Assembly: GCA_021852275.1 (NCBI GenBank)
Contig: JAJZNX010000124.1
Span: 1 to 63,885 of the forward strand
Reading direction: 5' to 3'
From: Planctomycetota bacterium
GTDB lineage: Bacteria; Planctomycetota; Phycisphaerae; WQYP01
DNA: 63,885 bases
The position numbers and the translations under genes were made by a program. Under the pieces are notes generated by a model. It was not told where the DNA came from. It did not search any database and saw only the letters and a list, made by a program, of their open reading frames with translations. This document shows positions 1 through 20,000 of the stretch, piece by piece (positions within the stretch are counted from its first letter, which is position 1; every line of letters begins with the position of its first letter).

Positions 1-1174
1 CCCAGCCATTGCTGCCGTACGCTCCAGACAAGCCACTGATGACAATTTGCGTGTTGGTCCAGGATGTTACATTGGCCACCACCGCATCGCCGGTATTAGC
101 AGCGGCCACTACGCCCGGATCCACTATCGATAGATACGGGCTGTCGCCATAATATGGACTTTGGCTGCCAAAATTATTGCCACTGATAAACATCTGCCAA
201 TTGTTGGTCCCGGATATGGGCTGCATCGACACGCCGGTGATGGTGGGGGCAGTGCCAGTAGTGCCTGATCCGGAAACTGCTATGCTTTCAGGGCCATTCA
301 GCCGCGTGACTAAAGAGGCGTTTACCGTCGCGCCCGAGGTAGTGTACTCGCCAACCGAGTCTGTGCCGAAGTTTACAACAAAAATATCCGAGCCGGAAAT
401 GGCGATACCATCTGGTTCATTAAGCCCTGTGACCAGCGCAGCGTTTACCGTCGCGCCCGAAGTGGTGTACTCACTGATGCTTCCGGTGTAAGCACTGCCT
501 GTATCGAGCTGAGCGACAAAAATATCTGAGCCGGAGACTGCGATGCCGTAAGGGGCATCCAGCCCTGTGACCAATGACGCGTTTACCGTTGCGCCGGAGG
601 TGGTGTATTCACCAATGGTGCCCGCAGAGTTATCTGTAACAAAAATATCCGAGCCAGAAACCGTCAAGCCTGCGGGAGCTTCCAGTCCTGTGACCAGCGC
701 GGTGTTGACGGTGGCACCCGATGTGGTGTACTCGGCGATGTTGTATGTGGCAGTGGCCTCAAAGTTTGTGACAAAAATATCCGAGCCGGAAATGGCGATA
801 CTATCCGGGGCATCCAGCCCTGTGATCAGCGTCGCGTTTACCGTCGCGCCCGAGGAAGTGTACTCGCCGATACTGTAGGTGTTATTGGATGGGTTGTAGT
901 TTGGAGCAAAAACATCTGCACCAGAGACTGCGACACCCCCAAAACTATCCAGCCCTGGGACCAGCGAGGCGCTGACCGTGGCGCCCGACGCGGTGAACTC
1001 GCTAATTCCTGCTACTTGGCTGCCCACAAACAGATTTCCACTCAAGAGCAGCCGCGGCTCGAGCACCTCAAACAACATCCGACGACCATGCCGGTACCTT
1101 CTGCTGGCCCGGCGGCACTTTTGCTCAGCCAATGCTGTTTTGAATAATGTGGATGCCAATTGAAAAAGTCCCAC
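1..1174 (-). CDS. LEPR-XLL leader secreted protein (paralogue 1): six ~42-aa beta-propeller repeats followed by an IPT/TIG-like module; 3' end runs off the window
   Basis: Hand translation of the minus strand. GTG at 1174 follows AAGGAG and gives MGLFQLASTLFKTALAEQKCRRASRRYRHGRRMLFEVLEPRLLLSGNLFV..., then six repeats of the type IGEYTTSGATVNASLVTGLDAPYGIAVSGSDIFV, then PTITGVSMQPISGTNNWQMFISGNNFG... The frame is open to base 1. It is missing from the ORF track because no stop lies in the window. Confidence 0.9.
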   Translation of the reverse strand, partial: MGLFQLASTLFKTALAEQKCRRASRRYRHGRRMLFEVLEPRLLLSGNLFVGSQVAGISEFTASGATVSASLVPGLDSFGGVAVSGADVFAPNYNPSNNTYSIGEYTSSGATVNATLITGLDAPDSIAISGSDIFVTNFEATATYNIAEYTTSGATVNTALVTGLEAPAGLTVSGSDIFVTDNSAGTIGEYTTSGATVNASLVTGLDAPYGIAVSGSDIFVAQLDTGSAYTGSISEYTTSGATVNAALVTGLNEPDGIAISGSDIFVVNFGTDSVGEYTTSGATVNASLVTRLNGPESIAVSGSGTTGTAPTITGVSMQPISGTNNWQMFISGNNFGSQSPYYGDSPYLSIVDPGVVAAANTGDAVVANVTSWTNTQIVISGLSGAYGSNGW

Positions 1175-1247
1175 GAGAACTCTCCTTGTTGGTAGCCGTT
1201 CACGGAGTTCAACCTGTCAGGCTCACCAACGGACCTGACCACAAAAA

Positions 1248-1276
1248 AATATACCCCGACCGCAGAATTAAAGCAA
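1248..1276 (-). promoter_or_regulatory. sigma70-like promoter for paralogue 1 (TTGCTT-17-TATATT)
   Basis: Minus strand TTGCTT (1276-1271), 17-bp spacer, TATATT (1253-1248), about 70 bp upstream of the GTG. Confidence 0.5.
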
Positions 1277-1711
1277 ATATGTTTATAAGGAGAGATAGCA
1301 ATAAACTTTGACTGTTGTGCACCGTCCGTCCGATAAAACGATCGGATCAAGCAAGTAATAAAAAGAACACAACGTATCTACCAGCGACGCATCACTGATG
1401 CTGACCAGATATTAGCAAAATGGCCCGCAATGATTGTCGATCTTTGTCCGCAGGTGGCCGAACTGTCGTGCGACGAGCTGCCAGATGGATTGCTGTTCGG
1501 ATTGCAACTACCGAGTGCGACGGCCGTTACCTGGCCGCGTCCATTATTTGGCTCCATGATATGCGGGTCTTCAGTGATAGCCTCTTCACGGCACTCAACC
1601 CTGACGTGTGGGTTTGCCCGATTCGGAAAAATGGCAGCCTTCGCTATCGAGCGTGTCTCACGAACAGTTCAATTCGCGCGAAGCAGTACATGTTTTTGCC
1701 ACATCTCCTTT

Positions 1712-4700
1712 TTACGCCGCCACCTCAAACACGCCGGAACTAACGCCGCTTTGCGGATTGGTTATTTCAAAGAGCACATTGTTGCCGGGGGCAATCACCC
1801 AGCCGTTGCTGCCATACGCCCCGGCCAAGCCGCTGATCACAATTTGCGTGTTACTCCACGAAGTAACATTGGCGTACGCAGCATCGCCCGTATGACCCGC
1901 CGCCACCACACCGGGGTCCACAATCACCAGATCCGGGCTGTCTCCCCAGAAGGCCGCCTGTGTGCCAAAGTTATTGCCGCTGATGAATATCTGCCAATTG
2001 TTGGTGCCGGAAATTTGCTGCATGGAAACGCTGGTAATCTGCGGAGTGCCCGATGAAAGTTGTACCATATCCGGTACCAACACGTTGGCCACCGGCGAGC
2101 CTAGACCTGTAACCAAATTATAGCCGGGTCCGGCCGAGTAGCCGCCATTGCTGCCGGTGGTAATGTTGTGAAAAGCGCTGCTGGGCAAGGAGTAAAGGTC
2201 CGGCAGAGTTTGGGTGGCACCATTGAGGGAACCTAAGCCTTGAGATGCACGCCCCTGATCCACCAGCGCAATTACTGCCGCCCACATCGGACATGCCAAA
2301 CTGGTACCGCCGATGACATTCCAAGGCGAACTGGTGCCAAAGTCGTAGGTATCGTATACGGATGCACCAGTCTGGGGATCGGCGTCCATGGCCACATCCG
2401 GAGCAGCCCGCATGGTGGAAGTAAGCCCATTAACTTTACCGGCCTGGTACGGTGGCTGCGGTTCATATTGACTGATGCCGCCTCCGCTGCCGCTCCATCC
2501 GGCCTCACCGCCATAGCTGTAACCACCGCCGCTGTTGGTAACAACAGTAAGCGTGGTTCCACCCACGGCAATCACATTTGGGGAAAGGGCCGGGTATTCG
2601 GCCGGAGATCCGGAATCGCCGGTGCTGGCCAGAAAGGTCACACCGATGTGGCCTGAAGGTGTAACAAATATGCCATCCGTAGAAGTTTCACTGGCGGCCT
2701 CCGCCCCGCCCCAACTCATGGACACCACCACCACGCCCGGCAAATTGGCAGCAGTTTGCACCGCGGTGTACAAATCGCCACTGGCGCTGTTGGCCTCCAC
2801 CAGATCAATATTGGCGTCGGGGGCAATGACATGCGCCCATTGCACATCGAGCGATTCTTCCATGCCCCAAGTACCGTTAGCGGGAAGGTTGGAGGTCTGG
2901 CCCTGTTGATTAAAAATCGTCAAGGTGGGACCGCCGGAAGTATTAAACTGCGGCAAGCCAAACTCGGAACTAAAGGCGTTGGCATCGGACATGATACTCG
3001 GGTCATTGCCGACATCCACAATGGCGATGGTTTCACCCTGTCCATACGCCGGCGTAGTACCAAAATCTATGCCGGCGGCACCGTAAGCCCCCAGCCCATA
3101 AGCCTCCCGCATTTGGGTGGGCGAGAGCCCGGTTGGAGTGTTGGTGCCGGCTGGAGCGGCTGGCAGCACCAAAGAATAGGTATTGGACGTTGCACCGCTG
3201 GCGGAATTGGTCACGATGATTTGCACCGTGTCTCCGGGATGTGCGCCGTAGACATAACCGTAAGACGCACCGGTAAATGAGCCAATGGTAATTTGCGTGT
3301 TGGTCCAATCGGTAACATCCAATGTTACCGAAGATCCTGGAGCACCGGCACTAAAGCCTTGTGTTACGTCGTAAACGCTCAGGTCGGAACTGGCTCCATT
3401 GTACGGACTTTGGAAGCCAAAACCAAGACCATTGATGGTAAAGCCGGCGTTATAAAACACGCCCGTCAGCGGCTCTGGCGTGACCCCGGTAATTTTCGTA
3501 GTTCCAGGAATCGCTTCGGCAAAGGGAGCTGACGCCTGATGGCTTTGTGGATTGATGACGACCACGTCCAACGTGTCGCCCGGGCTCACGACCCAACCAT
3601 TGAGTCCGTAGGCCCCGGTCATACCACTGATCACGATTTGGTTATTCGTCCAGGAAGTTACATTAGTGGTGACGGCATCGCCGACATAGCCGGCCGCAAC
3701 AATTCCCGGATCAAGAAGTTCCAGATTGCTGCTGTCGCCATTGTAGGCTGCTTGCGTACCAAAACCGGTGCCGTTAATCGTAAGGGTCCAATTGTTTTGA
3801 CCGCCGGGGCTGGCCGTTACACTGCTGATATTGGTGCCGGCAGTTTGGCCAAAGGTCACAACAGCATTGCTGTAGCTGTCGCCCATGGCGGTAAGTCCAC
3901 CGGCAAAAATTGCCTGCCCCTTCACCGTGGTAGCGGCCATGCCCATGCCGTCTATAGCCTGTGGCATGGTCGAAACGGACCACGTACCGGTACTGGTGTT
4001 GTAGATTTGTATGGTCCGGCTGGCCACCCAGTTTCCGCTGGAATACGCAGCTCCGCCAACAAAAATCGCCTCATCGCCGACACTGGTGGCCGCCATACCG
4101 GTAAGGCTATCGGGCATGGTACTGGTAGACCAGCTTCCCGTAGTGGCATTATAAATATCCACGGCCCTGCTGGTGTGCCAAGTACTGTTGGAATAATAAG
4201 CCCCGCCCGCAAATATCGCCAGATTCCCCGCAATTGTGGCCCCGCCGATATACCGCGGCTGCGAAAGCTGGGCGGTGGTCCACAGACCGGTGGAGGCGTT
4301 GTAAATGTCCACGACATTGCTGGCGACCCAGCCATTGGAATAATAGCCCCCGCCGGCAAATATCGCCGTGTTTCCAACAGCCAATCCGCTGGTTTCCCGA
4401 GCCTGCGAAAGTGCTGCAGTTGACCACAGACCGGTGGAAGTATTGTAAATTTGCACAGCGCTGCTGTAGCCACCGTCGGAAGCGTAATTGTTATAAAGCC
4501 CGCCAGCAAAAATGGCATCGCTGCCAATGCTGACCGCCGCCATGTTATCCAGTCCCTGCGGCAAAGCAGTTGTGCTCCAGGTACCGGTGGTGGCATCGTA
4601 GATCTGCATTAAGTTGCTTGCAGCTACCTGGCGCTGGACGGTTCCGTTGCCAAACTGCAAAGTCGTGGAGCTGTATGCGGCTCCGCCTGCGAAAATGGCT

Positions 4701-5821
4701 TCCTGCCCCACGCTGGTCGCGGCCATGCCCGCCAACCCTTGCGGCAGTGTACTCGTTGACCATCGGCCTGTGGCAGCGTTGTAAATATCCACCGCGCTGC
4801 TGCCGGAGGCATAGGAGCCGTACGCACCCCCGGCAAAAATTGCCAGGTTTCCAACCGAAGTTGCAGCCGGGCCAAAACGCGCCTGCGATAGTGTAGCGGT
4901 GGACCAACTGCCCATGGGTGCCGCCAATTCAAAATCATTGGACCGCCGGCCGCTCTCCGGGTTGGCCACGGATATGGCGACCGTATCACCGGGATTGATG
5001 ACCCAACCGCTAAGACCGTAGGCCCCGGTCAGGCCACTGATCACGATTTGTGAATCAGTCCATGATGTAACATTAACGGTAACGGCGTCGCCGGTATATC
5101 CGGCGGCCACGACTCCCGCGTCAACAATCTGCAAATTACTGCTGTCGCCGTTGAAAGGGCTTTGTGTACCAAACCCGCTGCCACTTACAAAGATTTGCCA
5201 ATTATTGCTGCCGGCTGCTAGCGGCTGCATAAACACACCGTCGATAACTGGATTGGCAGGTGGTGTGCCTGGCGCGACAGCACCAAAAGTAGCCGACGTC
5301 TGACCATCCTGCGGATTGGCAAGTGAAAAAAGAACCGTATCTCCGGGGCTGATCACCCACCCATTGCTGCCATAGGCTCCGGATAAACCACTAATCACAA
5401 TTTGCGTATTGGTCCAGGAAGTAACATTGGTCACCACCGCGTCGCCAGTATTGCCAGCGGCTACCACACCGGGGTCTACAATGGAAAGGTCCGGGCTATC
5501 CCCATAATAGGGGCTTTGCGTGCCGAAGCCGCTGCCGCTGATGAATATCTGCCAGTTGTTGGTACTGGAAATGGGTTGTATAGAAACGCCTGTGATTACC
5601 GGCACCGTAGAAGCGTTAGCAGCAATCGACGGTACAGATCCAGGTGCGCTGGTAAGCTCCATACCGGCAAACGTGGGAACACTGCTAAGTAAAATTCTCG
5701 GCTCAAGAGCTTCGAAAAGCACGCGACGCGATCTGTGCACACAAGGGTTCCGATTGCCTGCGACAACGGTGGTTTCCATCTTACAACCAACACGGGCTGA
5801 CAGTTTGGCAAACAATCCCAT
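1712..5821 (-). CDS. LEPR-XLL leader secreted protein (paralogue 2): 2 IPT-like, 7 Kelch repeats, 2 IPT-like, S53 sedolisin catalytic domain, C-terminal IPT-like
   Basis: ATG at 5821 after AGGAG (MGLFAKL..., matching the paralogue 1 start) and LFEALEPRILLS. Seven 'W.T..L...R..+AATSVG..AIFAGG...V.IYN' Kelch repeats. S53 motifs MEESLDVQW (Glu/Asp), STGDSG (oxyanion Asp), GGTSLACPMWAA (Ser) and GYNLVTGLGSP. Confidence 0.92.
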   Translation of the reverse strand: MGLFAKLSARVGCKMETTVVAGNRNPCVHRSRRVLFEALEPRILLSSVPTFAGMELTSAPGSVPSIAANASTVPVITGVSIQPISSTNNWQIFISGSGFGTQSPYYGDSPDLSIVDPGVVAAGNTGDAVVTNVTSWTNTQIVISGLSGAYGSNGWVISPGDTVLFSLANPQDGQTSATFGAVAPGTPPANPVIDGVFMQPLAAGSNNWQIFVSGSGFGTQSPFNGDSSNLQIVDAGVVAAGYTGDAVTVNVTSWTDSQIVISGLTGAYGLSGWVINPGDTVAISVANPESGRRSNDFELAAPMGSWSTATLSQARFGPAATSVGNLAIFAGGAYGSYASGSSAVDIYNAATGRWSTSTLPQGLAGMAATSVGQEAIFAGGAAYSSTTLQFGNGTVQRQVAASNLMQIYDATTGTWSTTALPQGLDNMAAVSIGSDAIFAGGLYNNYASDGGYSSAVQIYNTSTGLWSTAALSQARETSGLAVGNTAIFAGGGYYSNGWVASNVVDIYNASTGLWTTAQLSQPRYIGGATIAGNLAIFAGGAYYSNSTWHTSRAVDIYNATTGSWSTSTMPDSLTGMAATSVGDEAIFVGGAAYSSGNWVASRTIQIYNTSTGTWSVSTMPQAIDGMGMAATTVKGQAIFAGGLTAMGDSYSNAVVTFGQTAGTNISSVTASPGGQNNWTLTINGTGFGTQAAYNGDSSNLELLDPGIVAAGYVGDAVTTNVTSWTNNQIVISGMTGAYGLNGWVVSPGDTLDVVVINPQSHQASAPFAEAIPGTTKITGVTPEPLTGVFYNAGFTINGLGFGFQSPYNGASSDLSVYDVTQGFSAGAPGSSVTLDVTDWTNTQITIGSFTGASYGYVYGAHPGDTVQIIVTNSASGATSNTYSLVLPAAPAGTNTPTGLSPTQMREAYGLGAYGAAGIDFGTTPAYGQGETIAIVDVGNDPSIMSDANAFSSEFGLPQFNTSGGPTLTIFNQQGQTSNLPANGTWGMEESLDVQWAHVIAPDANIDLVEANSASGDLYTAVQTAANLPGVVVVSMSWGGAEAASETSTDGIFVTPSGHIGVTFLASTGDSGSPAEYPALSPNVIAVGGTTLTVVTNSGGGYSYGGEAGWSGSGGGISQYEPQPPYQAGKVNGLTSTMRAAPDVAMDADPQTGASVYDTYDFGTSSPWNVIGGTSLACPMWAAVIALVDQGRASQGLGSLNGATQTLPDLYSLPSSAFHNITTGSNGGYSAGPGYNLVTGLGSPVANVLVPDMVQLSSGTPQITSVSMQQISGTNNWQIFISGNNFGTQAAFWGDSPDLVIVDPGVVAAGHTGDAAYANVTSWSNTQIVISGLAGAYGSNGWVIAPGNNVLFEITNPQSGVSSGVFEVAA

Positions 5822-5878
5822 GGAACGCTCCTGCAACGTGCCTACCATCCTGACGGTAAGTACATTCGCACCACAGCT

Positions 5879-5907
5879 ATTATCCTGCCAAACTTCGGTC
5901 AGGTAAA
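5879..5907 (-). promoter_or_regulatory. putative promoter for paralogue 2 (TTTACC-17-GATAAT), overlapping the stop of paralogue 3
   Basis: Correct 17-bp spacing; sequence blocks shared with the promoter upstream of paralogue 3. Confidence 0.4.
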
Positions 5908-8235
5908 GGTCTTGCTGAATACCGCCGAGCTAACACCGTCTTGTGCATTGGCAACTTGGAAGAGCACATTGTTGCCGGGGGCGATCACCCAGCCGTTAGT
6001 ACCATACGCCCCGGCCAAGCCACTGATCACAATTTGCGTGTTGCTCCACGAAGTAACATTGGCATACGCTGCATCACCCGTATGGCCCGCCGCCACCACG
6101 CCCGGGTCCACAATCACCAGATCCGGGCTGTCGCCCCAGAAGGCCGCCTGCGTGCCAAAGTTATTGCCGCTGATGAATATCTGCCAATTGTTGGTGCCCG
6201 ATATCTGCTGGGCGGAAACCGCGGTGATTACCGGCACCACCGGTGCAGTGGTCGAAAAAACCGCTGATTGCCGACCAGTCTGAGGATTCACCACATCCAT
6301 GAGCACACTTTGACCGGAGCTTATCACCCACCCATTGCTCCCATACGCCCCGGATAAACCGCTGATCACAATTTGCGTATTGCTCCAGGAAGTAACATTG
6401 GTGCTGGCACCATCGCCCGTATGCCCTGCCGCCAATACTCCGGGATCCACTATGGAAATATCCGGCGAATCTCCATAAAACGCGCTCTGCGTGCCAAAGT
6501 TATTGCCGCTGATGAAGATCTGCCAGTTATCACTGCCGGGATACGTGGGCTGCATGAATACCCCGCTGATCACCGGGGCCGGCGTGCCGGGAGCGGTAGT
6601 GGAAAATGTGGCCGCCGCCAAACCGCTCTGTGGATTGCTCACTCCAAACAGCACGGTGTTGCCGGGGCTTATCACCCAGCCATTGCTGCCGTACGCTCCA
6701 GACAAGCCACTGATGACAATTTGCGTGTTGGTCCAGGATGTTACATTGGCCACCACCGCATCGCCGGTATTAGCAGCGGCCACTACGCCCGGATCCACTA
6801 TGGATAGATACGGGCTGTCGCCATAATATGGACTTTGGCTGCCAAAATTATTGCCACTGATAAACATCTGCCAATTGTTGGTCCCGGATATGGGCTGCAT
6901 CGACACGCCGGTGATGGTGGGACGCACCGCCGCAGGCGGTACAAGCTCAAAAATGCCACCAGATACATTCGTGCCGCCTCCACTGGCGTCCGCGTAAATG
7001 TTGCCGTTGCTGCTGATATAAGGCGTACCAAGGGGATTAAACACGGCAGAAAATTGTGAGAAGTTATAAAGGACGCTAAAGGTCCCCCCGGAACTTATTT
7101 CGTAGACGGTTCCGTCACCGTAGGCACCGCCGCTCGATGTCACCCCGTAAAGATTGCCGGCGCTATCCATCGCCAACCCAGCCTGCGGGTTGGTACCGTT
7201 GGTGCCGTTAAAGTTAACCAATGTCGTCAGCGTGCCATTGGACGAAAGCTTAAAGACGGTACCATACCCGCTGCTACCGCCATATTCGGTAACACCGTAA
7301 AGATTGCCGGAGCTATCACGCAACAAGCTGCCCATCGGGTTAGAACCGTCGGTGCCGTTAAAGGTGAACAACGTCGAGATCGCTCCATTGGATGCGACCT
7401 TGTAGACGCCGCCGTTTTGCACCACCACCCCACCCGCCTCCGAAGAGCCGGTGACTCCGTAAAGGTTGCCCGATCCATCTATGATGAGGCCGCCGTCAGG
7501 TAGTCCGGGGATCGTGCTGAAATCACTGGTTAACGTGCCATTAGATGCGTACTTAAAAATGCCCGGTTGATTGGCGTAGCCCACATTGTTAACGGCACCA
7601 TAGATGTTGCCGGAACTATCCATAACCACTCCGCCAACCGGTGCGTTGGCTGTGCCTGCAGCGGGGTCAAAATTCTCCAGCGTGGTATACGCACCACTGG
7701 AAGTAATACGAAAAAGCGTGCCAGACCCGTAATTTCCACCATTCGTGGTGGTGCCATAAAAATAGCCATTTCCAGCCAGATATAACGCATTTGGACCGTC
7801 CCCGGTGTCGTCAATGAAAGCCAACGGTGTCTGTTGCCCGCCCGGTGCAAGTGCAAATACCGCACTGGCATTATTGCCCACCAGGGTTCCGTTACTCTCC
7901 ATGGTCAAACTAGTGTCGGCAATCGTTCCATTGACTCCACGAAAATACCCCGCAGATCCTGACACGGAGGCCAACACCGTCAGTTGGTAGCCCGTCTGGG
8001 CATTGGCAGTTGCGGCCGCAGTCGATGTTAAGGCTGCCTGCCTGCTTATGGGTAGCGACGCCATACCCCCCGAGAAGGTGGCAGCGGCGCTGAGCATCAG
8101 TCGCGGTTCCAAGGCTTCAAACAGGCAACGGGCCGCGCGATGGCGGATAACTTTCCGAGATTCGCCGGCAACGGAGAATGACACGGGCAACTTCTGCGAC
8201 CGACGCAACCGCAATACTTTGGTGAACATATTCAT
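5899..8235 (-). CDS. LEPR-XLL leader secreted protein (paralogue 3): GloVer (Gloeo_Verruco, TIGR03803-type) repeats plus 3 IPT-like modules
   Basis: AGGAG RBS; LFEALEPRLMLS; about 7 repeats of the type NP.AGL..DS.GNLYG.T..GG..G.GTVF.+; three NNWQIFISGNNFG modules. Confidence 0.9.
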   Translation of the reverse strand: MNMFTKVLRLRRSQKLPVSFSVAGESRKVIRHRAARCLFEALEPRLMLSAAATFSGGMASLPISRQAALTSTAAATANAQTGYQLTVLASVSGSAGYFRGVNGTIADTSLTMESNGTLVGNNASAVFALAPGGQQTPLAFIDDTGDGPNALYLAGNGYFYGTTTNGGNYGSGTLFRITSSGAYTTLENFDPAAGTANAPVGGVVMDSSGNIYGAVNNVGYANQPGIFKYASNGTLTSDFSTIPGLPDGGLIIDGSGNLYGVTGSSEAGGVVVQNGGVYKVASNGAISTLFTFNGTDGSNPMGSLLRDSSGNLYGVTEYGGSSGYGTVFKLSSNGTLTTLVNFNGTNGTNPQAGLAMDSAGNLYGVTSSGGAYGDGTVYEISSGGTFSVLYNFSQFSAVFNPLGTPYISSNGNIYADASGGGTNVSGGIFELVPPAAVRPTITGVSMQPISGTNNWQMFISGNNFGSQSPYYGDSPYLSIVDPGVVAAANTGDAVVANVTSWTNTQIVISGLSGAYGSNGWVISPGNTVLFGVSNPQSGLAAATFSTTAPGTPAPVISGVFMQPTYPGSDNWQIFISGNNFGTQSAFYGDSPDISIVDPGVLAAGHTGDGASTNVTSWSNTQIVISGLSGAYGSNGWVISSGQSVLMDVVNPQTGRQSAVFSTTAPVVPVITAVSAQQISGTNNWQIFISGNNFGTQAAFWGDSPDLVIVDPGVVAAGHTGDAAYANVTSWSNTQIVISGLAGAYGTNGWVIAPGNNVLFQVANAQDGVSSAVFSKTFT

Positions 8236-8356
8236 GTTATTGCTCCTGGTACAAAAAACATTGCCTAATAACCCAGCTTGGCGACTATATCGCTTTGTGG
8301 TACTTCAACAATGATGATCCCGGAGATCGACGCACTCAAGACCCATCACAGCAATT

Positions 8357-8385
8357 ATTGTGCCGTTTTACAGGCTTCAGGTCAA
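8357..8385 (-). promoter_or_regulatory. putative sigma70 promoter for paralogue 3 (TTGACC-17-CACAAT)
   Basis: Near-consensus -35 with a 17-bp spacer, about 120 bp upstream of the ATG. Confidence 0.45.
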
Positions 8386-8743
8386 GTAAATTGCGTTAGC
8401 TGACGCTGACAGTCAAGGATCCTATGGGCAGAGCATTTGGCAAGAACCCTACCAACGATTCGCTGGTTCCCAGCGGACTGCTGTATACCAATCATCGACA
8501 GGTTTTTTGGAAAGAGTTTTAATGTATGCAATGAGCCGGATCAGCACGCATAAAGCTTTATCCGTTCTACAGGCAGATTTGACCGATAGCCCCGATCACC
8601 ATGCTACTGCCCCCTGCCGCCACGAGCGTCTGATCGGCAGTCGATTCCACGCTGATGGATCCAGCATTGACGGCTTTATTCTGTAAATAAAGACTTCCGT
8701 TGGGCTAAGCGCCAATCGTTACCGCCGGCCCAATCAGCTTGTG

Positions 8744-9910
8744 TTAAGTGGTTGCGCTGAACACTGCCGATGTGATGCCGCTTTGTGGATTCGTCACTTC
8801 AAAGAGCACCGTGCTACCAGATCCCAACACCCAACCATTGGAACCGTAGGCACCGCTTAGTCCACTGATAACGATTTGGGTATTGGTCCAGGATGTTACA
8901 TTGACAGTTACTGCATCACCCGTATAACCAGCCGCCACAACTCCAGGATCAACAATCACCAAATCGCTGCTGTCACCGTTAAAGGCGGCTTGCGTTCCAA
9001 AATTATTGCCGCTGATGAAGATTTGCCAGTTATTGCCGCCGGATATCGGCTGTGCAAAAACACCGGAAATAGATGGGGTAACATTTGCCCCTGGCACAGT
9101 GTAACTGAAGGTGGAGGCACCTAAACTATCTTGCGGATTGCTGATGTTGAAATCAAGGGTATTCCCGGCGCTGATGGTCCAGCCATTCTGGCCGTATGCG
9201 CCATTGAACCCGTTAATGACGATTTGATCATTATTCCACAAACCCACATTGGCCGTTACGGCATCACCGTTAAAACCAGCCTGCACAATTCCCGGATCCA
9301 AAACGCTTATATCGGCGTTGTTACCAAGGTATGCCGCCTGATCGCCCAACCCGTGGCCGCTGATGAATACCTGCCAGTTATTGCCGCCGGATATCGGCTG
9401 CATAAACACGCCGTCAACCTGCGGCGTGCCGGGAACCGTGAGATTGGTTACCGCGGAAACATTTGTTTGCGGATTCATAACCGCAATCACCAACGAATCC
9501 GCCGGGCTGATAACCCAGCCATTGGTGCCATAGGCACCAGAAAGTCCGTCAATGGTAATTGAGCTTACACCCGTGGTGGAATTGGTGGTCCAGGACGTAA
9601 CATTCAAAGTCACTGCGTCACCAGTCTGACCGCCGGTGAACACGCCAAAATCCACCACGGTAATATCGCCACCGCCAGTCGGTGACGTACTGCTGCCCAA
9701 ATTACTCCCATTGATCGTGATGGAATAATTGTTTGTACTGCCCGAGAGAGCGGAAATACTGGCTGATGTTATCACCGGTGCAGCACTAAGCATCACCCGC
9801 GGTTCCAAGGCTTCAAACAGTCGCCGTGGCTGACGCCGCTTCTGCTGCTCGTCGATCCTGTCGCTAAACACACCATTATTACGATTAAAGATTCGGGCTA
9901 AAATACTCAT
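8744..9910 (-). CDS. LEPR-XLL leader secreted protein (paralogue 4): three IPT/TIG-like modules only
   Basis: GGAG RBS; RRLFEALEPRVMLS; three copies of the shared module and no other domain. Confidence 0.9.
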   Translation of the reverse strand: MSILARIFNRNNGVFSDRIDEQQKRRQPRRLFEALEPRVMLSAAPVITSASISALSGSTNNYSITINGSNLGSSTSPTGGGDITVVDFGVFTGGQTGDAVTLNVTSWTTNSTTGVSSITIDGLSGAYGTNGWVISPADSLVIAVMNPQTNVSAVTNLTVPGTPQVDGVFMQPISGGNNWQVFISGHGLGDQAAYLGNNADISVLDPGIVQAGFNGDAVTANVGLWNNDQIVINGFNGAYGQNGWTISAGNTLDFNISNPQDSLGASTFSYTVPGANVTPSISGVFAQPISGGNNWQIFISGNNFGTQAAFNGDSSDLVIVDPGVVAAGYTGDAVTVNVTSWTNTQIVISGLSGAYGSNGWVLGSGSTVLFEVTNPQSGITSAVFSATT

Positions 9911-9969
9911 CAGGTTACTCCATATTAACAGGACTACACGGAATCGTTAAAAACCACCACTTACACATT

Positions 9970-9998
9970 AGTATACGCAATAATCGGCCACATAGCAA
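9970..9998 (-). promoter_or_regulatory. sigma70-like promoter for paralogue 4 (TTGCTA-17-TATACT)
   Basis: Minus strand TTGCTA 9998-9993, 17 bp, TATACT 9975-9970. Confidence 0.55.
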
Positions 9999-10021
9999 AA
10001 AAAAGCCCACGAAAAGTGGGC
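9997..10021 (-). terminator. Rho-independent terminator insulating the LEPR-XLL array from the upstream oxidoreductase
   Basis: GCCCAC-TTTTC-GTGGGC followed by 8 T on the minus strand. Confidence 0.75.
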
Positions 10022-10231
10022 ATAACGTTGGCTGCAAATTTACAATTAACGCATAACGTCCGATAACTTTTCGGGCGGAGCGACACAGAATCGCTATTTC
10101 CGCAACTGCAAAACATCATCCGTTATCGCAGTCGATGCTTATGAGCAGCCCGGCGCAAAACAATCTATGTTCGTCCGATGCCAATCATCCCAACCCAACT
10201 CATTGCTTTTGCCATCCGAACTTCTGGCAAA

Positions 10232-11341
10232 TTACGCGATTAACACTTCCTTGCCGGCCTCGCCGGAACGGTACACGCCGTCAATAATCTTTTGTACTGC
10301 AATGCCCGCTTCCCCCGGAGCTTCCAGAGGCGTGTTGTGTATAATCGCATGGATAAAGTTCCGCTGTTTTTCCACAAAGAGCGAGCTAAAATCGGAATTT
10401 TCCAGAAACGCCGGCTGGGAATTAATCATCGTTCCAGCGCGATCGGTGAACAGACCCGGCGGATCCCAGTTGGCACCACCTTTGTCGCCGATCAGGCTGA
10501 AATTCCATACATCTTTTTCGATATGGGCCGCGAATGACGCTTCAATCTGCATGATCGCACCATTGGCAAAACGAATATGGCCGATGGCCAGGTCTTCCAC
10601 GGTATACGTCTTCCAGTCCCACTGCGGCCAGGCTGAAACTATATTACTCGGCTTGTTGCCCATATAAGTCCAGAAATTGCCGGTAGCCGCCACCGGCTTG
10701 GGAGATCCCATGATGTAGTGGGCCATCTCAATAACATGCACACCAATGTCAATCATGGGGCCACCACCCTGCAACTTCTTCTGGCCGAACACCCCCCAGT
10801 TGGGTATGCCCCGGCGGCGCAACGCCCGGCATTTCACATACATGATGTTGCCGAACTGCCCTTCATCCCGGGCCCGCTTGATCATCTGAGTGGTGGGATG
10901 ATAGCGGTATTGAAAACCAACGGCCAGTTTGCGCTTGTTCTTCTTAGCCGCGTCAATCATGGCCTGACATTCCTTCGGACTCATGGCCATCGGTTTTTCC
11001 GTCATCACGTGCGCTCCGGCATTCAAAGCAGCAATCGCGGCCGGTGCGTGCACCCCATTGGGGGTACAAACATCCACGACATCCGGCTTGACTTCCTTAA
11101 GCATCTTTTTGTAATCCAGGTATACGCCCTGAACGCCGTGCTCATCGCGAATCCAATCCAGCCGGTCCGGCTTGATGTCCGCTCCGGCGACCACTTCCAC
11201 CTCGGGAATTTTTTTGTAAGCCGCCAGATGCGTTCCGGAAATTCCGCCACATCCGATAAACGCCACACGAACTTTCTTACCTTTGAATTCCTGTTTTTTT
11301 TCGCCGCCCAATGATTCCGTTGAAACACCTGAGTTAGCCAT
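10232..11341 (-). CDS. Gfo/Idh/MocA family NAD(P)-dependent oxidoreductase
   Basis: VAFIGCGGIS Rossmann motif, CTPNGVH, EKPMA, GGGPMIDIGVH. Confidence 0.93.
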   Translation of the reverse strand: MANSGVSTESLGGEKKQEFKGKKVRVAFIGCGGISGTHLAAYKKIPEVEVVAGADIKPDRLDWIRDEHGVQGVYLDYKKMLKEVKPDVVDVCTPNGVHAPAAIAALNAGAHVMTEKPMAMSPKECQAMIDAAKKNKRKLAVGFQYRYHPTTQMIKRARDEGQFGNIMYVKCRALRRRGIPNWGVFGQKKLQGGGPMIDIGVHVIEMAHYIMGSPKPVAATGNFWTYMGNKPSNIVSAWPQWDWKTYTVEDLAIGHIRFANGAIMQIEASFAAHIEKDVWNFSLIGDKGGANWDPPGLFTDRAGTMINSQPAFLENSDFSSLFVEKQRNFIHAIIHNTPLEAPGEAGIAVQKIIDGVYRSGEAGKEVLIA

Positions 11342-11476
11342 TCCAAGATTCCTTTAAATAAAACCGCTTAAGCCAATCTTAAGTCATAGTCGGCCATTGT
11401 CTGAACTTCATAAGAATTTGCAAGTAACCCATCCTGGCACCCCCATACCGCCCCGCCGAATTTTCCCTTGCCGGAA

Positions 11477-11890
11477 TCACTGCGAAACATGATTCAGATA
11501 TTCCTGCAATATGCCTGCCGCAGCAACCGCGTCTATCCGCTGTCGCTTCTGCCGGCGCGTGAAGTGGCCCGCCAGGCGGGCTTGGGCTTCATGGCTGGTC
11601 AGCCTCTCATCCACTCTGGCTACCGCAATTCCGGTCGCCTGCTCCACCTGCAGGATAAATTGCTCCACCTTCTGGGCCTGCGGACCGGCACTGCCATCCA
11701 TATTCAGTGGAATTCCGCATACAATCAACTCTACCCCTTCCATTTTGGCCAAACGCCCAATCTCCACCACCAGGGCGGCATCCGAAAAATTTTCCAGCAG
11801 CTTCAGCGGCGTAGCCAGTCGCGATTGCGTTTCACCCAAAGCCACTCCGGTACGTTTGCCACCGTAATCAATGCCAAGCACTCGAGCCAT
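11477..11890 (-). CDS. ruvX: Holliday junction resolvase RuvX / pre-16S rRNA nuclease YqgF
   Basis: VLGIDYGGKRTGVA, GIPLNMDG, VDERLTS, IDAVAAAGILQ; start placed at MARVLG. Confidence 0.93.
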   Translation of the reverse strand: MARVLGIDYGGKRTGVALGETQSRLATPLKLLENFSDAALVVEIGRLAKMEGVELIVCGIPLNMDGSAGPQAQKVEQFILQVEQATGIAVARVDERLTSHEAQARLAGHFTRRQKRQRIDAVAAAGILQEYLNHVSQ

Positions 11891-11913
11891 TGGTCTAACC
11901 GCTGCTCCCCAGA

Positions 11914-12990
11914 TCACACATACCGTTCCCCAAACTCGCTTTGCAGTTTACTCACCATCTGTTTAATATTTTCCGCCTGCTGCGTAGGACAGATCAACGT
12001 CGCCTCCGGCGTATGCACAATGGTAAGATCCTGCACACCTATCGTGGCGATAAGATGATTCTCCTGCGATACCGCCACCACGCCATGAGAATTGAGCGCC
12101 GCAAGTTGACACCCGGCAGATTTATTTCCCGCGGCGTCGGCGGTCAGTGTTGCGGCAAAGCTGCCCCAACTGCCTACATCCAGCCATTGCACCGGCATTG
12201 GAATCACCGCCACATCCGGGGATTTTTCCATCACCGCATAATCAATACTTACCTTGGGCAACGAAGGATAAATTTCCACCAGTTTGGCCTGATAATCCGG
12301 CAACTGCCAGCACCTGGCAATTTCCATCACTCCGGCGTAGGTGGCCGGGGCATACCGCCGGATTTCTTCCAATATGGTCTGCGCCTTCCATACAAACATA
12401 CCGCTGTTCCACAAATACTCACCGGATGAAACGTATTGCTGGGCAGTTTGGCGATCAGGCTTTTCCTTAAAGGCCTGTACCCGCAGGGCCTGGCTGCCGG
12501 CGGCCAGCGGCTGCCCCTTGTGTACGTAGCCAAACCCGGTAGCCGCATGCGTAGGCGTTATGCCAAATGTCACCAGCGTCTGTGGATGGCGTTCCACTGT
12601 ATCAAAACCCGCTTCCAGACAGCGCGTAAATGTGTCCAGCGGTTCAATTAAATGATCGGCCGTCAGCACCGCCATGGTAGCATCCGCATCGACCCGGCTC
12701 AGAATGGCCGCCGAAAAGCCGACCGCGTTGACCGTATCCCGGCCACACGGTTCCCCAAGAATTTGGGCGGCAGAAAATCCGGGCATTTCTTTTTGGATCT
12801 TCTCAACGTAATCCGCCCCGGTGCAGATATACACGCGCGACGCATCCACCACCCCAACCGGCCGCCGTACCGCAATTTCCAGTAAACATCGACCATCAAT
12901 CAACGGCAGCAACTGCTTGGGCCTGGCACGTGTGGACATGGGCCAAAGCCGGGTTCCCGCTCCGCCCGCCATGATCACTGCATAACGCAT
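11914..12990 (-). CDS. manC: mannose-1-phosphate guanylyltransferase
   Basis: VIMAGGAGTRLWPMS..PKQLL, EPCGRDT, FKEKPD, WNSGMF, SIDYAVMEK, WLDVGSW. Confidence 0.92.
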   Translation of the reverse strand: MRYAVIMAGGAGTRLWPMSTRARPKQLLPLIDGRCLLEIAVRRPVGVVDASRVYICTGADYVEKIQKEMPGFSAAQILGEPCGRDTVNAVGFSAAILSRVDADATMAVLTADHLIEPLDTFTRCLEAGFDTVERHPQTLVTFGITPTHAATGFGYVHKGQPLAAGSQALRVQAFKEKPDRQTAQQYVSSGEYLWNSGMFVWKAQTILEEIRRYAPATYAGVMEIARCWQLPDYQAKLVEIYPSLPKVSIDYAVMEKSPDVAVIPMPVQWLDVGSWGSFAATLTADAAGNKSAGCQLAALNSHGVVAVSQENHLIATIGVQDLTIVHTPEATLICPTQQAENIKQMVSKLQSEFGERYV

Positions 12991-13237
12991 AATTTTCTCC
13001 GCAACACCATGCCCAGACCGGACCGATCATTTTTTTTCATGGAGCATCTCACCTTTTCACCCGGGCTGCGACGGCTCGCTGACAACAGGTTCAACCGCAA
13101 TACCATTTCAGCCCGCCCTCATTGCCCCTATAATGCTCTGTGGCGATGATAATGCCAAGCGCCCAAGGGGATCTGCGAAGGAAGACATGGTCGCCAAGAG
13201 TCGCCGGGTAACTTGCAGATCCGAAAGGAATTCCAGG

Positions 13238-14851
13238 ATGCCATGTATTATTTCACGGTCCATCGGCGCTGCCACGGCGGCCTTGCTGTTGACGATTTGC
13301 GCAAACATCCCGCCAGTGGCCGCTAAAAGCCCCGCCACCAATCTGGTGCGACTGGCGGCTCCACATTTCAATGCGGCCAAAAATAGCTTCTCCATTCCCG
13401 CCGCCTTCTGGAACGAACATCTCACCAATTGGCTGGATGTGGCCATCTGCGGTCGACCCAGTAACTTTCTCCACGAAACCATTTTAAGCATCCAGACCAC
13501 ACGCACCATCATCCGCCAAGCCATGCAGACCATCGGCTTTGTTAATGCCGATGCCTGGGCTCCCGATTTTCACGATTTTGTGCAGGTTCGCGGCCAACCT
13601 TTGCTGATTCTGGTACGCTTTCGCCAGCACGGAAAGCTGCGCACCTATCCACTGGAAGAACTGATCTCTCTGGAACAGTGGAATATCTCCATCGGCCCCA
13701 TCGGCTGGCTATACCTGGGCACTCCCGAAACTCATGCCCCCACCCTGCATGCCCAGAACTACCAGCCTGGGCAACGGGCCAATCCCAATGCCATTCTCGT
13801 TGACGATCCACAGGTGGCCATGCAGTTCCGAGGTATTCAATCCACCTCGCAGGCGCTGGTGGATAATCCGCTGTGTTTTGACGGCTGGATTTATCCCAAT
13901 ATCCGCTATTTCCGCAATACTTCCCTCATCCCCTGGAAAGTTTACAACAGCAACGGAGCGATCCCAACCACTCTTATATTTCGCCGCGTATCCGAAGTGG
14001 ATTACCTGCAGCAGTGTGCGCGATACTGGCATGACGCCGCCTTTGCCAAATACATACTGACTCATTTACCCATCGCCCGAAAAATTGATCACTTCCGAAA
14101 AATGCTTTGGCAACTTACCCATGCCCAGCACAAAACATGGAATAATTCAACCACCGTACAATATGCCGCCGCCAATCTGCAAGCCGGCTATGCCGCCCTT
14201 GATGCGGCATGGATCAACTGGGATTTCCACCACGCCCGATTTGGCCCCGGCTCGCCGGCCATTGTCGCCGCCATTAAAGCTCGAGCCACACTTTTCGACC
14301 AATACATGCACCAGCGCCAAGAGCGCTGGGCACAATGGCTTATTGCCGCCGGAGCGGCACGCGAACTCTCTGCATTACGAAAAAAAACGCCTGCTCCAGC
14401 ACCAGCAACTTTAGCCCGGCTGCAGGCCCGGGAGTTGGCCGCCCGTTCCCGCGCCATGCTGCTCAAAAATGCCCAGGCGCTGCAAATGTGGACCCAAAAA
14501 TTGAAAAGTCTCTCCCCCAACGACCCACGCAAACAATGGATCAAAGATGTCCATGCCGAATTTCACTTAGCCCGCGCCCGCCAACGACTCGGCAATGTCG
14601 GAATCGCCTATGCTCACGCCCTGCGTTTGCATTCGCCAAAACAACTCGCCGCCGCCCAAAAAGAGTACATTCTAGCTATTTTGCGGACCACTCTGGCCGG
14701 AGCCATCGTTCGCCGGGTGAATATCGAGTTTGAAATTTCCACCCAGCGTGGGTTCGCATCTAAAAGCCACATGAGCCGGTTACAAGCCGCCAAGGCCGCG
14801 TTACTCCAGGAAATCAAAACCATCCGCAGCCACATCGCCCAGATGCGCTGA
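13238..14851 (+). CDS. exported hypothetical protein, possible YdjY-like N-terminal domain plus long helical C-terminus
   Basis: ATG 13238 after AAAGGA; Sec-like signal (GAATAALLLTICANIPPVAA); ICGRPSNFLHETILS resembles YdjY-family motifs as recalled; very basic composition. Confidence 0.6.
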   Translation: MPCIISRSIGAATAALLLTICANIPPVAAKSPATNLVRLAAPHFNAAKNSFSIPAAFWNEHLTNWLDVAICGRPSNFLHETILSIQTTRTIIRQAMQTIGFVNADAWAPDFHDFVQVRGQPLLILVRFRQHGKLRTYPLEELISLEQWNISIGPIGWLYLGTPETHAPTLHAQNYQPGQRANPNAILVDDPQVAMQFRGIQSTSQALVDNPLCFDGWIYPNIRYFRNTSLIPWKVYNSNGAIPTTLIFRRVSEVDYLQQCARYWHDAAFAKYILTHLPIARKIDHFRKMLWQLTHAQHKTWNNSTTVQYAAANLQAGYAALDAAWINWDFHHARFGPGSPAIVAAIKARATLFDQYMHQRQERWAQWLIAAGAARELSALRKKTPAPAPATLARLQARELAARSRAMLLKNAQALQMWTQKLKSLSPNDPRKQWIKDVHAEFHLARARQRLGNVGIAYAHALRLHSPKQLAAAQKEYILAILRTTLAGAIVRRVNIEFEISTQRGFASKSHMSRLQAAKAALLQEIKTIRSHIAQMR

Positions 14852-14886
14852 TACCATCCAGCATCACGCCACACGCCGACAGACCA

Positions 14887-15768
14887 TTACGAGGCCTCGC
14901 AAAACTTGCGAGTCCGCATCCACTTTGCACAGGCCGCCGGCCACTGTGACAGGACGGGGTCGTTGCCGCCCAGACCATAGCCGTGACCACCATGATCATA
15001 CGTAACCACATCATTGGGAATTTGGTGGCGGGTCAAGGCATCGGCCATCATAATGGAATTGTCCACCGGCACGGCTTTATCATCCGTAGAATGTACAAAA
15101 AAGCACGGTGGCGTAGCGGCGGTTACCTGTAAATGGCTGGACAGTTTCTTCCGGAGTTCGATGGAAGCATCCGGCCCCAGTAAATTCGCACAAGAACCTT
15201 CATGGCACATCGGCCCCGTAAAGGTAATCACCGGATATACCAGAATGGCCAGATCCGGCCGCGAACTAACACGATCCACCGGATCCTTGCGCCCCGCGTC
15301 GGCAGGTTCAAACTGCGTGGCGGCGGTGGAAGCCAGATGGCCGCCGGCGGAAAATCCCAAAATACCCACTCGGCCCGCATCAAGTTGCCACGGCCCCGCC
15401 ATCGCCCGAACCGTGCGTATGGCCCGCGCTGCATCCATCAGCATGGCCGGGTGCCGGTAATTATTTGCTCCCAGGCGATAACGCAACACAAAAGCGGCAA
15501 TCCCAATAGAATTTAACCATTGAGCCACGGGGTCTGCTTCGTGCTCTGCCAGTCCCCAATAGCCTCCACCGGGACATACCACAACGGTGGCACACTTGGC
15601 CGGTAAATTGGGCGGCGTAAACGCAATCATCGCCGGAATGTCGGCTGGTCCGTCACCGTGACTTAGCGGTGCAGCCTGATCCCACAAACGAATAAACGTT
15701 CCCACGACAGGTCTGGATTTTAGCGATAAAACGCTTTGGTAACCGGTACGCTGTGTTAATGGCGTCAT
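14887..15768 (-). CDS. alpha/beta hydrolase (acetyl esterase / BD-FAE-like)
   Basis: CPGGGY, GILGFSAGGHL nucleophile elbow, DKAVP Asp, HGGHGYG His; GAGGAG RBS before ATG 15768. Confidence 0.88.
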   Translation of the reverse strand: MTPLTQRTGYQSVLSLKSRPVVGTFIRLWDQAAPLSHGDGPADIPAMIAFTPPNLPAKCATVVVCPGGGYWGLAEHEADPVAQWLNSIGIAAFVLRYRLGANNYRHPAMLMDAARAIRTVRAMAGPWQLDAGRVGILGFSAGGHLASTAATQFEPADAGRKDPVDRVSSRPDLAILVYPVITFTGPMCHEGSCANLLGPDASIELRKKLSSHLQVTAATPPCFFVHSTDDKAVPVDNSIMMADALTRHQIPNDVVTYDHGGHGYGLGGNDPVLSQWPAACAKWMRTRKFCEAS

Positions 15769-15996
15769 ACGGTTCTCCTCTTCTGGCCGGTTATTGTTCA
15801 CCATTTGTGGTTGAATTTCAACCTCGGATATGCGGGGAACATTTCTATTCCGGCTAAGGGATGGCAATTTTACTTCAGTACAACACGCTGGCATCTCATA
15901 AATAGAACGGGTATACTATTTGGGTTAGTTGGCCGGAATAGGCAGTAAAGGCTTATTCAAGTGATGCCACGGGATTTAGTTAGTTAGAGGTTTATC

Positions 15997-16263
15997 ATGG
16001 CTCATAAGAAGGGACAAGGTTCCACCCATAATGGTCGCGACAGCAATCCAAAATACCTGGGAATTAAGGCCTACGCAGGGGAATTGGTTACTACCGGATC
16101 GATCATTGTCCGGCAGCGCGGAACCAGGTTCAAGGCCGGTAAAAATGTCGGTTTAGCGCGAGATGATTCGCTGTTTGCTCTTGCCGGAGGTCGGGTGAGG
16201 TTTGCCTCTAACCGTAAGGTCTCAGTGGATCCGGAGCCTGCTGCCGCTCCCGTTGCCGGATAA
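15997..16263 (+). CDS. rpmA: 50S ribosomal protein L27
   Basis: [24 protein letters not shown]...[12 protein letters not shown]. Confidence 0.98.
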
Positions 16264-16323
16264 CCGGTTCTGCCAGCCGGAAGCATGCCTTCACGTGAAC
16301 ATTATTACAACCATCAAGGGCAG

Positions 16324-16351
16324 CTTCGCGCTGCAGCGGGAAGTATTTTTT
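16324..16351 (+). terminator. possible terminator after rpmA
   Basis: CTTCGCGC-TGCA-GCGGGAAG imperfect stem followed by TATTTTTT. Confidence 0.4.
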
Positions 16352-16427
16352 ATAAAGTGTTGGTACTCTGGTGCCGGGTAAGTGTGGGTGCCTTAATTCG
16401 CATAGCCTCTGAAAGGCCGTATAATCG

Positions 16428-17165: not shown

Positions 17166-17332
17166 AAAGCCGGCCCGGCTACTCTGGTGCTGTCAGCGGA
17201 CTGGGCACTCGAGGCCGATCTTGCCAAGTTCTGGTGGCCTCAATGACGCGTGAGGCCACTGACAAAATTGCCGGTCACGTACGTTCCACCGTACTGGAAT
17301 AAACGCCGTCAAGCGGTCCAGGTGAAGGTAAA

Positions 17333-19907: not shown

Positions 19908-20000
19908 CAGCAACTACCTTCACGTTCGTTATGATGAGCTGGCAAGATAACAGATTCCAGTGCAAGTTACAATATTATTTTACCACAAACCATTATATTA

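Follow-up and report, generated by a model that had tools for sequence, protein, structure and literature searches.

The DNA stretch analysed here, hereafter the window, is the whole of a 63,885-nucleotide contig (C96; JAJZNX010000124.1) of a metagenome-assembled genome (MAG) from a planctomycete of the class Phycisphaerae (GCA_021852275.1; 3.58 Mb, 82% complete), and its position 1 is a contig end. Between positions 2 and 9910 it carries four long open reading frames (ORFs), named g1 to g4, all on the minus strand and arranged head to tail, each of which opens with a leader of the planctomycete LEPR-XLL type and contains one or more copies of the same predicted immunoglobulin (Ig)-like module. 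On balance, we regard this array as probably being a lineage-specific, fast-evolving cluster of paralogues encoding exported multidomain proteins, in which the Ig-like repeats would serve as spacers behind the LEPR leader.

Specifically, the LEPR-XLL ('Planc_extracel') leader would stand in for the classical signal peptide in each protein, most likely directing it to an exporter centred on a SecA-like ATPase of the short type together with a membrane protein of the PqqD/M50-fusion type. The payloads, presumed to be the working parts, are three kinds of beta-propeller, predicted to bind ligands, and an S53 peptidase, which would act as an acid peptidase; the Ig-fold modules, in the general role of spacers or stalk units, would keep these payloads apart and project them. 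Gene conversion and unequal recombination would continually homogenise and reshuffle the tandem module copies, and the module would be common to the paralogues because of this process, and not as the mark of a special assembly system.

Organisation of the array

The array begins with g4 (8744-9910; 388 amino acids, aa), which consists of a LEPR-XLL leader (aa 1-44; 9779-9910) and three modules (module 1, 9431-9778; module 2, 9092-9424; C-terminal module 3, 8747-9076), with no other domain. Next to it, g3 (5899-8235; 778 aa) encodes its leader (8080-8235), a payload region of GloVer tandem repeats (6922-8079) and three modules (6589-6921, 6241-6576 and 5902-6234, together spanning 5902-6921). 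The longest gene, g2 (1712-5848; 1378 aa), encodes a leader (5684-5848), two modules (5270-5602 and 4916-5251), a Kelch-repeat propeller (3836-4915), two further modules (3506-3835 and 3161-3499), the catalytic domain of an S53 peptidase (2045-3160) and a last module (1715-2044), so that its five modules span 1715-5602. Finally, g1 (2-1174) is cut by the contig end and comprises a leader (1040-1174), a propeller of six NHL/Vgb-lyase-like repeats (248-1039) and the N-terminal 82 residues of a module (2-247). The final module of g2, g3 and g4 extends right up to the stop codon, with 0 residues in between, and neither a hydrophobic nor a PEP-CTERM tail is visible at the three C-termini.

This anatomy agrees with that given in an earlier note on the same DNA, which had described four co-oriented leader-bearing genes, at least 12 module copies (1+, 5, 3 and 3), a C-terminal module and no PEP-CTERM tail in the three complete genes, and payloads that differ from gene to gene (a six-repeat propeller in g1, Kelch repeats plus S53 in g2, GloVer repeats in g3 and none in g4). 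The module hidden Markov model (HMM) finds exactly these 12 copies, and the payloads are all as described there.

The four leaders, MLFEVLEPRLLLS in g1, VLFEALEPRILLS in g2, CLFEALEPRLMLS in g3 and RLFEALEPRVMLS in g4, share a basic stretch followed by the pattern (M/V/C/R)LFE(A/V)LEPRxxLS. The LEPR motif starts at residues 31-47 of the ORFs and is preceded by Arg/Lys-rich segments; in g4 the order is an N-terminal MSILARIF element, the basic stretch and then RRLFEALEPRVMLSAA. All four leaders exceed the curated cut-off (17 bits) of the 24-position NCBIfam LEPR-XLL/LEPR-8K model NF012209, with scores of 25 (g1), 19 (g2), 23.7 (g3) and 30 bits (g4). With the Pfam model PF07595 (Planc_extracel) g1 alone gave a match, at 15.8 bits (E 0.012), below the gathering score of 25.5. 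A six-frame search of the genome with the LEPR model retrieved the four genes of the window and one on contig C74. As judged by a crude hydrophobicity count, the only measure of signal-peptide character used here, the best uncharged 10-residue window within the first ~50 residues contains 0-7 hydrophobic residues in g1-g4, compared to 8-10 in many homologues whose leaders look ordinary.

The leaders look bipartite, with a short hydrophobic or amphipathic N-terminal element (MSILARIF, MNMFTKVL, MGLFAKL or (M)GLFQLAS) joined by a basic linker of 20-30 residues to the LEPR box. This element falls outside the 20-24-residue Pfam and NCBIfam models and recurs in orthologues and in distant LEPR proteins. 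The start codon of g2 is ambiguous, as a second Met at codon 10 gives an N-terminus, MGLFAKL, resembling that of the paralogues.

Payload domains

The GloVer repeats of g3 match TIGR03803 in 6 stretches with 209.5 bits (cut-off 44), and the Kelch propeller of g2 is matched above cut-off by Kelch_4 (40.9 bits) and Kelch_6 (37.5 bits). The six ~43-aa repeats of g1 gave a sub-threshold match to Vgb_lyase/NHL. The peptidase of g2, which matches the Peptidase_S8 clan, is of the sedolisin/kumamolisin type: its best matches in the PDB are kumamolisins (2.7e-26) over the full length of the catalytic domain, and the E/D/D/S positions align, as do the motif pairs EESLD/EVELD, GDSGS/GDSGS and GGTSLACP/GGTSAVAP (g2/kumamolisin). 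No Pfam match to a pro-kumamolisin domain was found in g2, the alignment to 1t1e begins at residue 210 of the latter, and the S53 domain is directly preceded by two modules.

The shared module and its predicted fold

The module is ~111 aa long, and the HMM search of the genome returned its 12 copies (one truncated in g1, five in g2, three each in g3 and g4) and nothing else; the domain E-values range from 1e-36 to 1e-55. Compared with the last module of g4, the complete copies show 40-75% identity; judging by these scores, the repetition is far beyond chance.

The window copies matched no Pfam or NCBIfam family, and the IPT/TIG model (PF01833) gave no match to them even at E<=1. Among related modules, 15 of 31 match Pfam TIG weakly (best 6.9e-5) and nine of the 31 show weak matches to a 'choice-of-anchor Z' repeat model; among distant full-length homologues, 26 of 100 match TIG, with a best value of 2.1e-11. 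An AlphaFold2 (AF2) model of g4 module 3, built on a 31-row alignment, is an all-beta sandwich of nine strands with a predicted local distance difference test score (pLDDT) of 94 and a predicted template modelling score (pTM) of 0.87. When this model was compared to the PDB with Foldseek, the best matches were generic Ig-like sandwiches (E>=0.03; template modelling score, TM, 0.3-0.49), none of them with E<=1e-3 or TM>=0.5, and a profile search of PDB sequences with the module gave nothing significant (best E 0.27). Matches to the archaellin and archaeal pilin folds, with TM <0.5, were not taken as homology.

From the sequence comparisons and the predicted structure together, we conclude that the module most plausibly belongs to the IPT/TIG-like Ig-fold domains, among which it would form a divergent and uncatalogued branch with an additional beta-meander. 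The tie to IPT/TIG is transitive, running through the related modules, and 'IPT-like', the term chosen in the earlier note, appears a fair label: the weak TIG matches of the relatives and the all-beta sandwich speak for it, the failure of the window copies to match PF01833 against formal membership of that family.

Positions conserved across the family include Gly and aromatic residues (GxGFG, W-AG, SW, GF-G-YG, WN-Q-G), and several of the aromatic ones are replaced in the window copies, for example the W of W-AG and that of VWN. Matches to Poly_export (PF02563) were rejected as a short-motif coincidence (GD-L-V-VWN) and were not counted as evidence for polysaccharide export. Some distant homologues with the module (P0014 and the P0021 cluster) carry public annotations such as 'translation initiation factor IF-1' or 'polysaccharide export with SLBB domain', which appear to be motif-level mis-annotations of an uncatalogued domain.

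Distribution and partners of the module

A profile search of 1.84 billion representative proteins, clustered at 50% identity, found the module family in 924 clusters at E<=1e-3 and in 554 at E<=1e-10. The cluster names carry almost no taxonomy, and the sources that could be named include Terracidiphilus (Acidobacteriota), Eremiobacterota and Candidatus Binatus. Among the 146 top representatives outside the close relatives, a LEPR-type leader is present in five, where the module is internal; the remaining ones show mostly ordinary-looking N-termini of the signal-peptide or lipoprotein type, according to the crude hydrophobicity measure. In these 146 proteins the module lies at the extreme C-terminus in 73, near the N-terminus in 29 and internally in 44, and its partner domains are highly diverse (PKD, Big_1, GH5, GH16, chitobiase C-terminal, trypsin, M23, ABC-2 permeases and TIR, among others).

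Closer to the window, the module is found in all five genomes of the genus, in two of 16 other genera of the family and in none of 16 genomes from other families of the class. Within the family it occurs mostly in LEPR proteins; in the genome of the window all 12 modules sit in LEPR proteins, and four of the five LEPR ORFs carry modules. In a sister genus (G013), one locus (L023, G013:C126, 1485-5192 and 15812-19915) has the module in a Ser/Thr kinase and in an FHA/zinc-ribbon protein, both lacking the LEPR leader, with the modules presumably in the extracytoplasmic parts.

These data bear on the two halves of what the earlier note had proposed. Its description of modular proteins with a common leader, interchangeable payloads and a shared IPT-like module is borne out, the module being confined in this genome to LEPR proteins. 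Its further claim, that a module shared for anchoring or polymerisation marks a dedicated and so far undescribed system, is not supported, because the module is widespread, promiscuous in its partners, mostly without a LEPR leader and often internal. The note had itself named a widespread, stand-alone IPT/TIG-type module with no tie to the leader as the finding that would speak against it. Globally this is largely the situation that we encountered, with 924 clusters and a leader in five of 146; locally, the co-occurrence of module and leader is real.

Variable arrays and concerted evolution of the modules

In three other genomes of the genus the array directly follows the same flank, with 83-99.7% aa identity. 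In the window this upstream flank (10232-12990) consists of genes for a Gfo/Idh/MocA oxidoreductase and for a mannose-1-phosphate guanylyltransferase (ManC); in an independent assembly of the locus (L024) RuvX is called between them. The gene set and the module numbers differ among the array-bearing relatives: g4, the first gene, is the sole member present in all those examined, its orthologues having 3, 4 or 5 modules, and g3 orthologues have 3 or 4. In the G004 array g4 has 5 modules and g3 has 4, a decayed remnant of a g1-like gene is present, and g2 is missing. The G003 array combines a LEPR-S53-module gene broken into two frames with a module ORF of 188 aa and with g4 (5 modules). In contigs of the G002 type, a g1-type gene comes immediately after g4 (4 modules). 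The g1 orthologue P0013, which has the same architecture with at least 2 modules, follows a g4-type gene. The g1-type remnant (L016, G004:C83, 5814-6920) has an internally deleted module, and the two frames of the split G003 gene (L017, G003:C138, 11596-13204) overlap. Across the genus the locus occupies one chromosomal position, with variable content, module number (3-5) and far boundary.

A maximum-likelihood tree of 31 modules adds to this picture. Module 1 of g4, taken from all four genomes, forms one clade with 100/100 support and no other module has clear orthologues specific to its position. The remaining modules mostly cluster according to the genome they come from, irrespective of gene and position; such genome-wise clustering is, at the sequence level, the signature that intragenomic homogenisation would leave. 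In addition, a cassette at positions 1-247, in g1, differs from positions 6675-6921, in module 1 of g3, at a single base (246 of 247 nucleotides identical), and the identity stops exactly at the module boundary, compared to 60-84% identity for other module pairs. This g1/g3 conversion is the most recent homogenisation event visible in the array.

A candidate export route

The leader RRLxxExLExRxLLA has been treated as a putative novel planctomycete export signal, export being likely and unproven (PMC8567305). In Tuwongella immobilis 52 genes carry it, 20 of the products were detected, and 8 of these only in the sodium dodecyl sulfate (SDS; envelope) fraction; proteases and Ig-like domains are among the payloads, and the leader is found on 8 of the 10 longest proteins (PMC8567305). 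The combination of one leader with varied payloads is thus already known, since it was described for this leader in that work.

In the genome of the window a 661-aa SecA-like protein (SecA_DEAD, PP_bind, P-loop) is encoded next to a 734-aa membrane protein that contains HExxH and matches M50 and PqqD below threshold (C18:11854-16095), and a second, partial cassette of the same SecA-like/M50 type lies at C137:1681-3219. Across 41 relatives the M50-fusion gene is present in 17 of 18 LEPR-positive and in 12 of 23 LEPR-negative genomes (Fisher p=0.005, a value that ignores phylogeny), where LEPR-negative means that no leader was detected with the 24-position, insensitive leader model. In three genomes (G009, G016 and G013) a LEPR gene lies 3.5-22 kb from the cassette on the same contig. 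This association is consistent with the proposed route.

Placement of the modules and their possible role

In g2 four of the five modules are internal and flank the Kelch and S53 domains. A comparable arrangement was observed in a single 1926-aa LEPR protein of G013, which reads module-Kelch-module-module-S53-module-S53, and 5-7 internal modules were counted in LEPR proteins of 2614 aa (G003) and 2753 aa (G002). Internal modules are found in the giant LEPR proteins of loci L021 and L022. Given this internal placement in g2 and in related planctomycete proteins, the module seems to behave as a spacer or stalk unit. In the full-length model of g4 the leader is disordered (pLDDT <50 for residues 1-41) and the three beta modules are independent of one another; with a pTM of 0.46, this monomer model gives no information on inter-module packing.

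Several observations weigh against a cluster of exported proteins with spacer modules. The link of the SecA-like/M50 cassette to LEPR export is correlative and not proof: 12 genomes have the cassette and no detectable LEPR leader, and in the genome of the window the cassette is not adjacent to the array. The spacer role is argued from placement and by analogy, and the module stands at the very C-terminus in all three complete genes and in 73 of the 146 distant homologues, an excess over what a pure spacer would give, which may leave room for a terminal binding or retention role. GloVer 'choice-of-anchor' repeats are usually followed by a sorting signal, and in g3 this position is occupied by the modules. 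Furthermore, the conservation across the genus of g4, made of modules only, is not explained by a spacer role.

Some of these observations would suit a terminal module that acts, in the manner of a carbohydrate-binding module (CBM), as a binding or retention domain for a cell-surface glycan or a polymeric substrate, the internal copies being its duplicates, a reading that we consider unlikely. In half of the distant homologues, secreted-type proteins that include glycosidases and peptidases, the module forms the extreme C-terminus, and the modules of g3 fill the anchor position behind the GloVer repeats. The Gly and aromatic positions conserved in the family could line a binding site, and the genes around the array suggest a sugar-nucleotide or glycan setting, with ManC and Gfo/Idh/MocA upstream and, in L024, genes for an acyltransferase, an epimerase and a family 2 glycosyltransferase (GT2) downstream. 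However, the loss of several of the aromatic positions from the window copies speaks against such a site, no CBM or lectin was matched by family or fold search, and the frequent internal copies argue against a purely terminal function.

Even less probable, in our view, is that the module is a polymerising or anchoring unit, with g4 forming a lattice or fibre on which the paralogues dock via homotypic contacts, thereby displaying the propellers and the protease. S-layer and fibre proteins commonly contain Ig-like arrays, and g4 is the only gene kept in all the genus relatives examined, with a module 1 that is orthologous across four genomes. Moreover, the module is C-terminal in the three complete genes, is confined to LEPR proteins in this genome and takes the place of an anchor after the GloVer repeats. 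The position of g4 at the head of the array fits as well: a promoter-like site (9970-9998, minus strand) followed by a GGAG Shine-Dalgarno sequence precedes its ATG, and upstream of this site lies a terminator-like hairpin of the upstream Gfo/Idh/MocA gene (10005-10021, minus strand). These are consensus matches only, and the promoter and terminator scans gave background-level scores; an alignment of the regions upstream of the four genes revealed no shared regulatory element, and an Rfam search of window positions 1-12000 gave no match.

What tells against polymerisation is the wide occurrence of the module with ordinary-looking leaders and unrelated partners, together with the internal position of most copies in g2 and in related LEPR proteins. 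No S-layer, SLH, pilin or fibre family was matched in the Pfam and NCBIfam scans, the fold search gave no PDB match at E<=1e-3, with archaellin and archaeal pilin at TM <0.5, and the free change in module number (3-5) fits a stalk better than a lattice. A specific version, in which g4 is an exported structural subunit and homotypic module docking recruits the propeller and protease paralogues to an extracellular g4 scaffold, seems to us more doubtful again. If true, the g4 scaffold would amount to a cellulosome-like display in which one Ig-fold domain serves as both 'cohesin' and 'dockerin', loaded via LEPR-leader export.

Independent assemblies of the locus

The sequence of g4 is present in five further assemblies with 99.8-100% DNA identity and an identical protein; four of these run into g3 and two continue into g2. 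The junction between g2 and g1 is supported by the window contig alone. One assembly from another sample (L024, ERZ27237454) is 99.98% identical to window positions 1726-19910 (18.2 kb) and diverges inside the last five codons of g2 (window 1712-1726; …GVFGETFA* versus …GVFEVAA*), continuing into genes for an acyltransferase-3, the epimerase and the GT2 in place of g1 (L024:18185-21167). These tail genes are absent from the MAG of the window, and the difference means either that strains differ in where the array ends or that a repeat caused a mis-join in one of the two assemblies. In another contig (L026, ERZ27237063 k141_169841, 7340-8312) window position 2736 is joined to an inverted copy of window 1782-2754, which is a hairpin-type assembly artefact inside g2.

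That the array itself, or part of it, is a product of repeat-induced chimeric joins, chiefly at the g2-g1 junction and in the terminal cassette, is highly improbable: the contig does end within a repeat, and both L024 and L026 depart from it in g2, but the array is recovered from g4 onwards in the independent assemblies, three other genomes have syntenic arrays, one relative has a g1-type gene immediately behind a g4-type gene, a g1 remnant lies inside the G004 array, and the g1 and g3 cassettes are distinct copies because one base differs between them. If the g2-g1 junction were false, the placement of g1 alone would fall, not the array.

Significance

What is new here is a domain family within a known fold class and a compact set of LEPR substrates, not a new kind of system. 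The proteins of the array, at 388-1378 aa, should be far easier to express and track than the usual giant members of this poorly understood group, which would make them convenient reporters for leader cleavage and for the proposed SecA-like/M50 route. The module defines an uncatalogued, widespread Ig-like domain family of 924 clusters, present in at least Planctomycetota, Acidobacteriota, Eremiobacterota and Binatota and mostly missed by Pfam and NCBIfam. In addition, the array documents, for an uncultured lineage of Phycisphaerae, a surface-type locus that is hypervariable and evolves in concert.

Comparison with known systems

The closest known counterparts are the planctomycete LEPR-XLL surface proteins (PF07595, NF012209; Studholme et al. 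2004, as cited in PMC8567305), which have the same type of N-terminal leader. In both sets the leader is predicted to replace a classical signal peptide and the payloads vary, including proteases and Ig-like repeats. In contrast to the best-known members, which are giant, the proteins of the window are small and encoded in tandem; they also share the uncatalogued TIG-like module and do not reach the PF07595 threshold.

Fibrillar adhesin-like proteins resemble the array in their tandem, near-identical Ig-fold repeats of strain-variable number, in their concerted evolution and in the putative binding domains attached to the repeats, which in the window would be the propellers (PMC10952558); the survey of these proteins includes PF07595 among the signal peptides (PMC10952558). 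The proteins of the window differ in several ways: none of the known anchor types can be recognised at their C-termini, their payload precedes the stalk in the sequence, and a stalk comprises just 1-5 repeats. Moreover, g2 bears an enzyme, and g4 lacks a tip domain altogether.

At the level of single domains, the module is similar to IPT/TIG (PF01833) in its size (~100 aa), its predicted all-beta sandwich and an opening of the type P-x-I-T-x-V-S-P ... G-G-T-x-V-T-I-x-G-x-x-F, and differs in having an extra predicted beta-meander (Y-x-G-D-S ... D ... A-G-x-T-G-D) between the B strand and the S-W strand. The peptidase of g2 keeps the Glu/Asp, oxyanion Asp and Ser motif positions of the kumamolisins and sedolisins (MEROPS S53); unlike kumamolisin, it has no pro-kumamolisin activation domain and lies, flanked by TIG-like modules, C-terminal to both the LEPR leader and the Kelch propeller. 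Finally, g3 shares six strong repeats with the GloVer 'choice-of-anchor' proteins (TIGR03803) and, whereas that family by its name ends in varied C-terminal sorting signals, g3 ends in three TIG-like modules.

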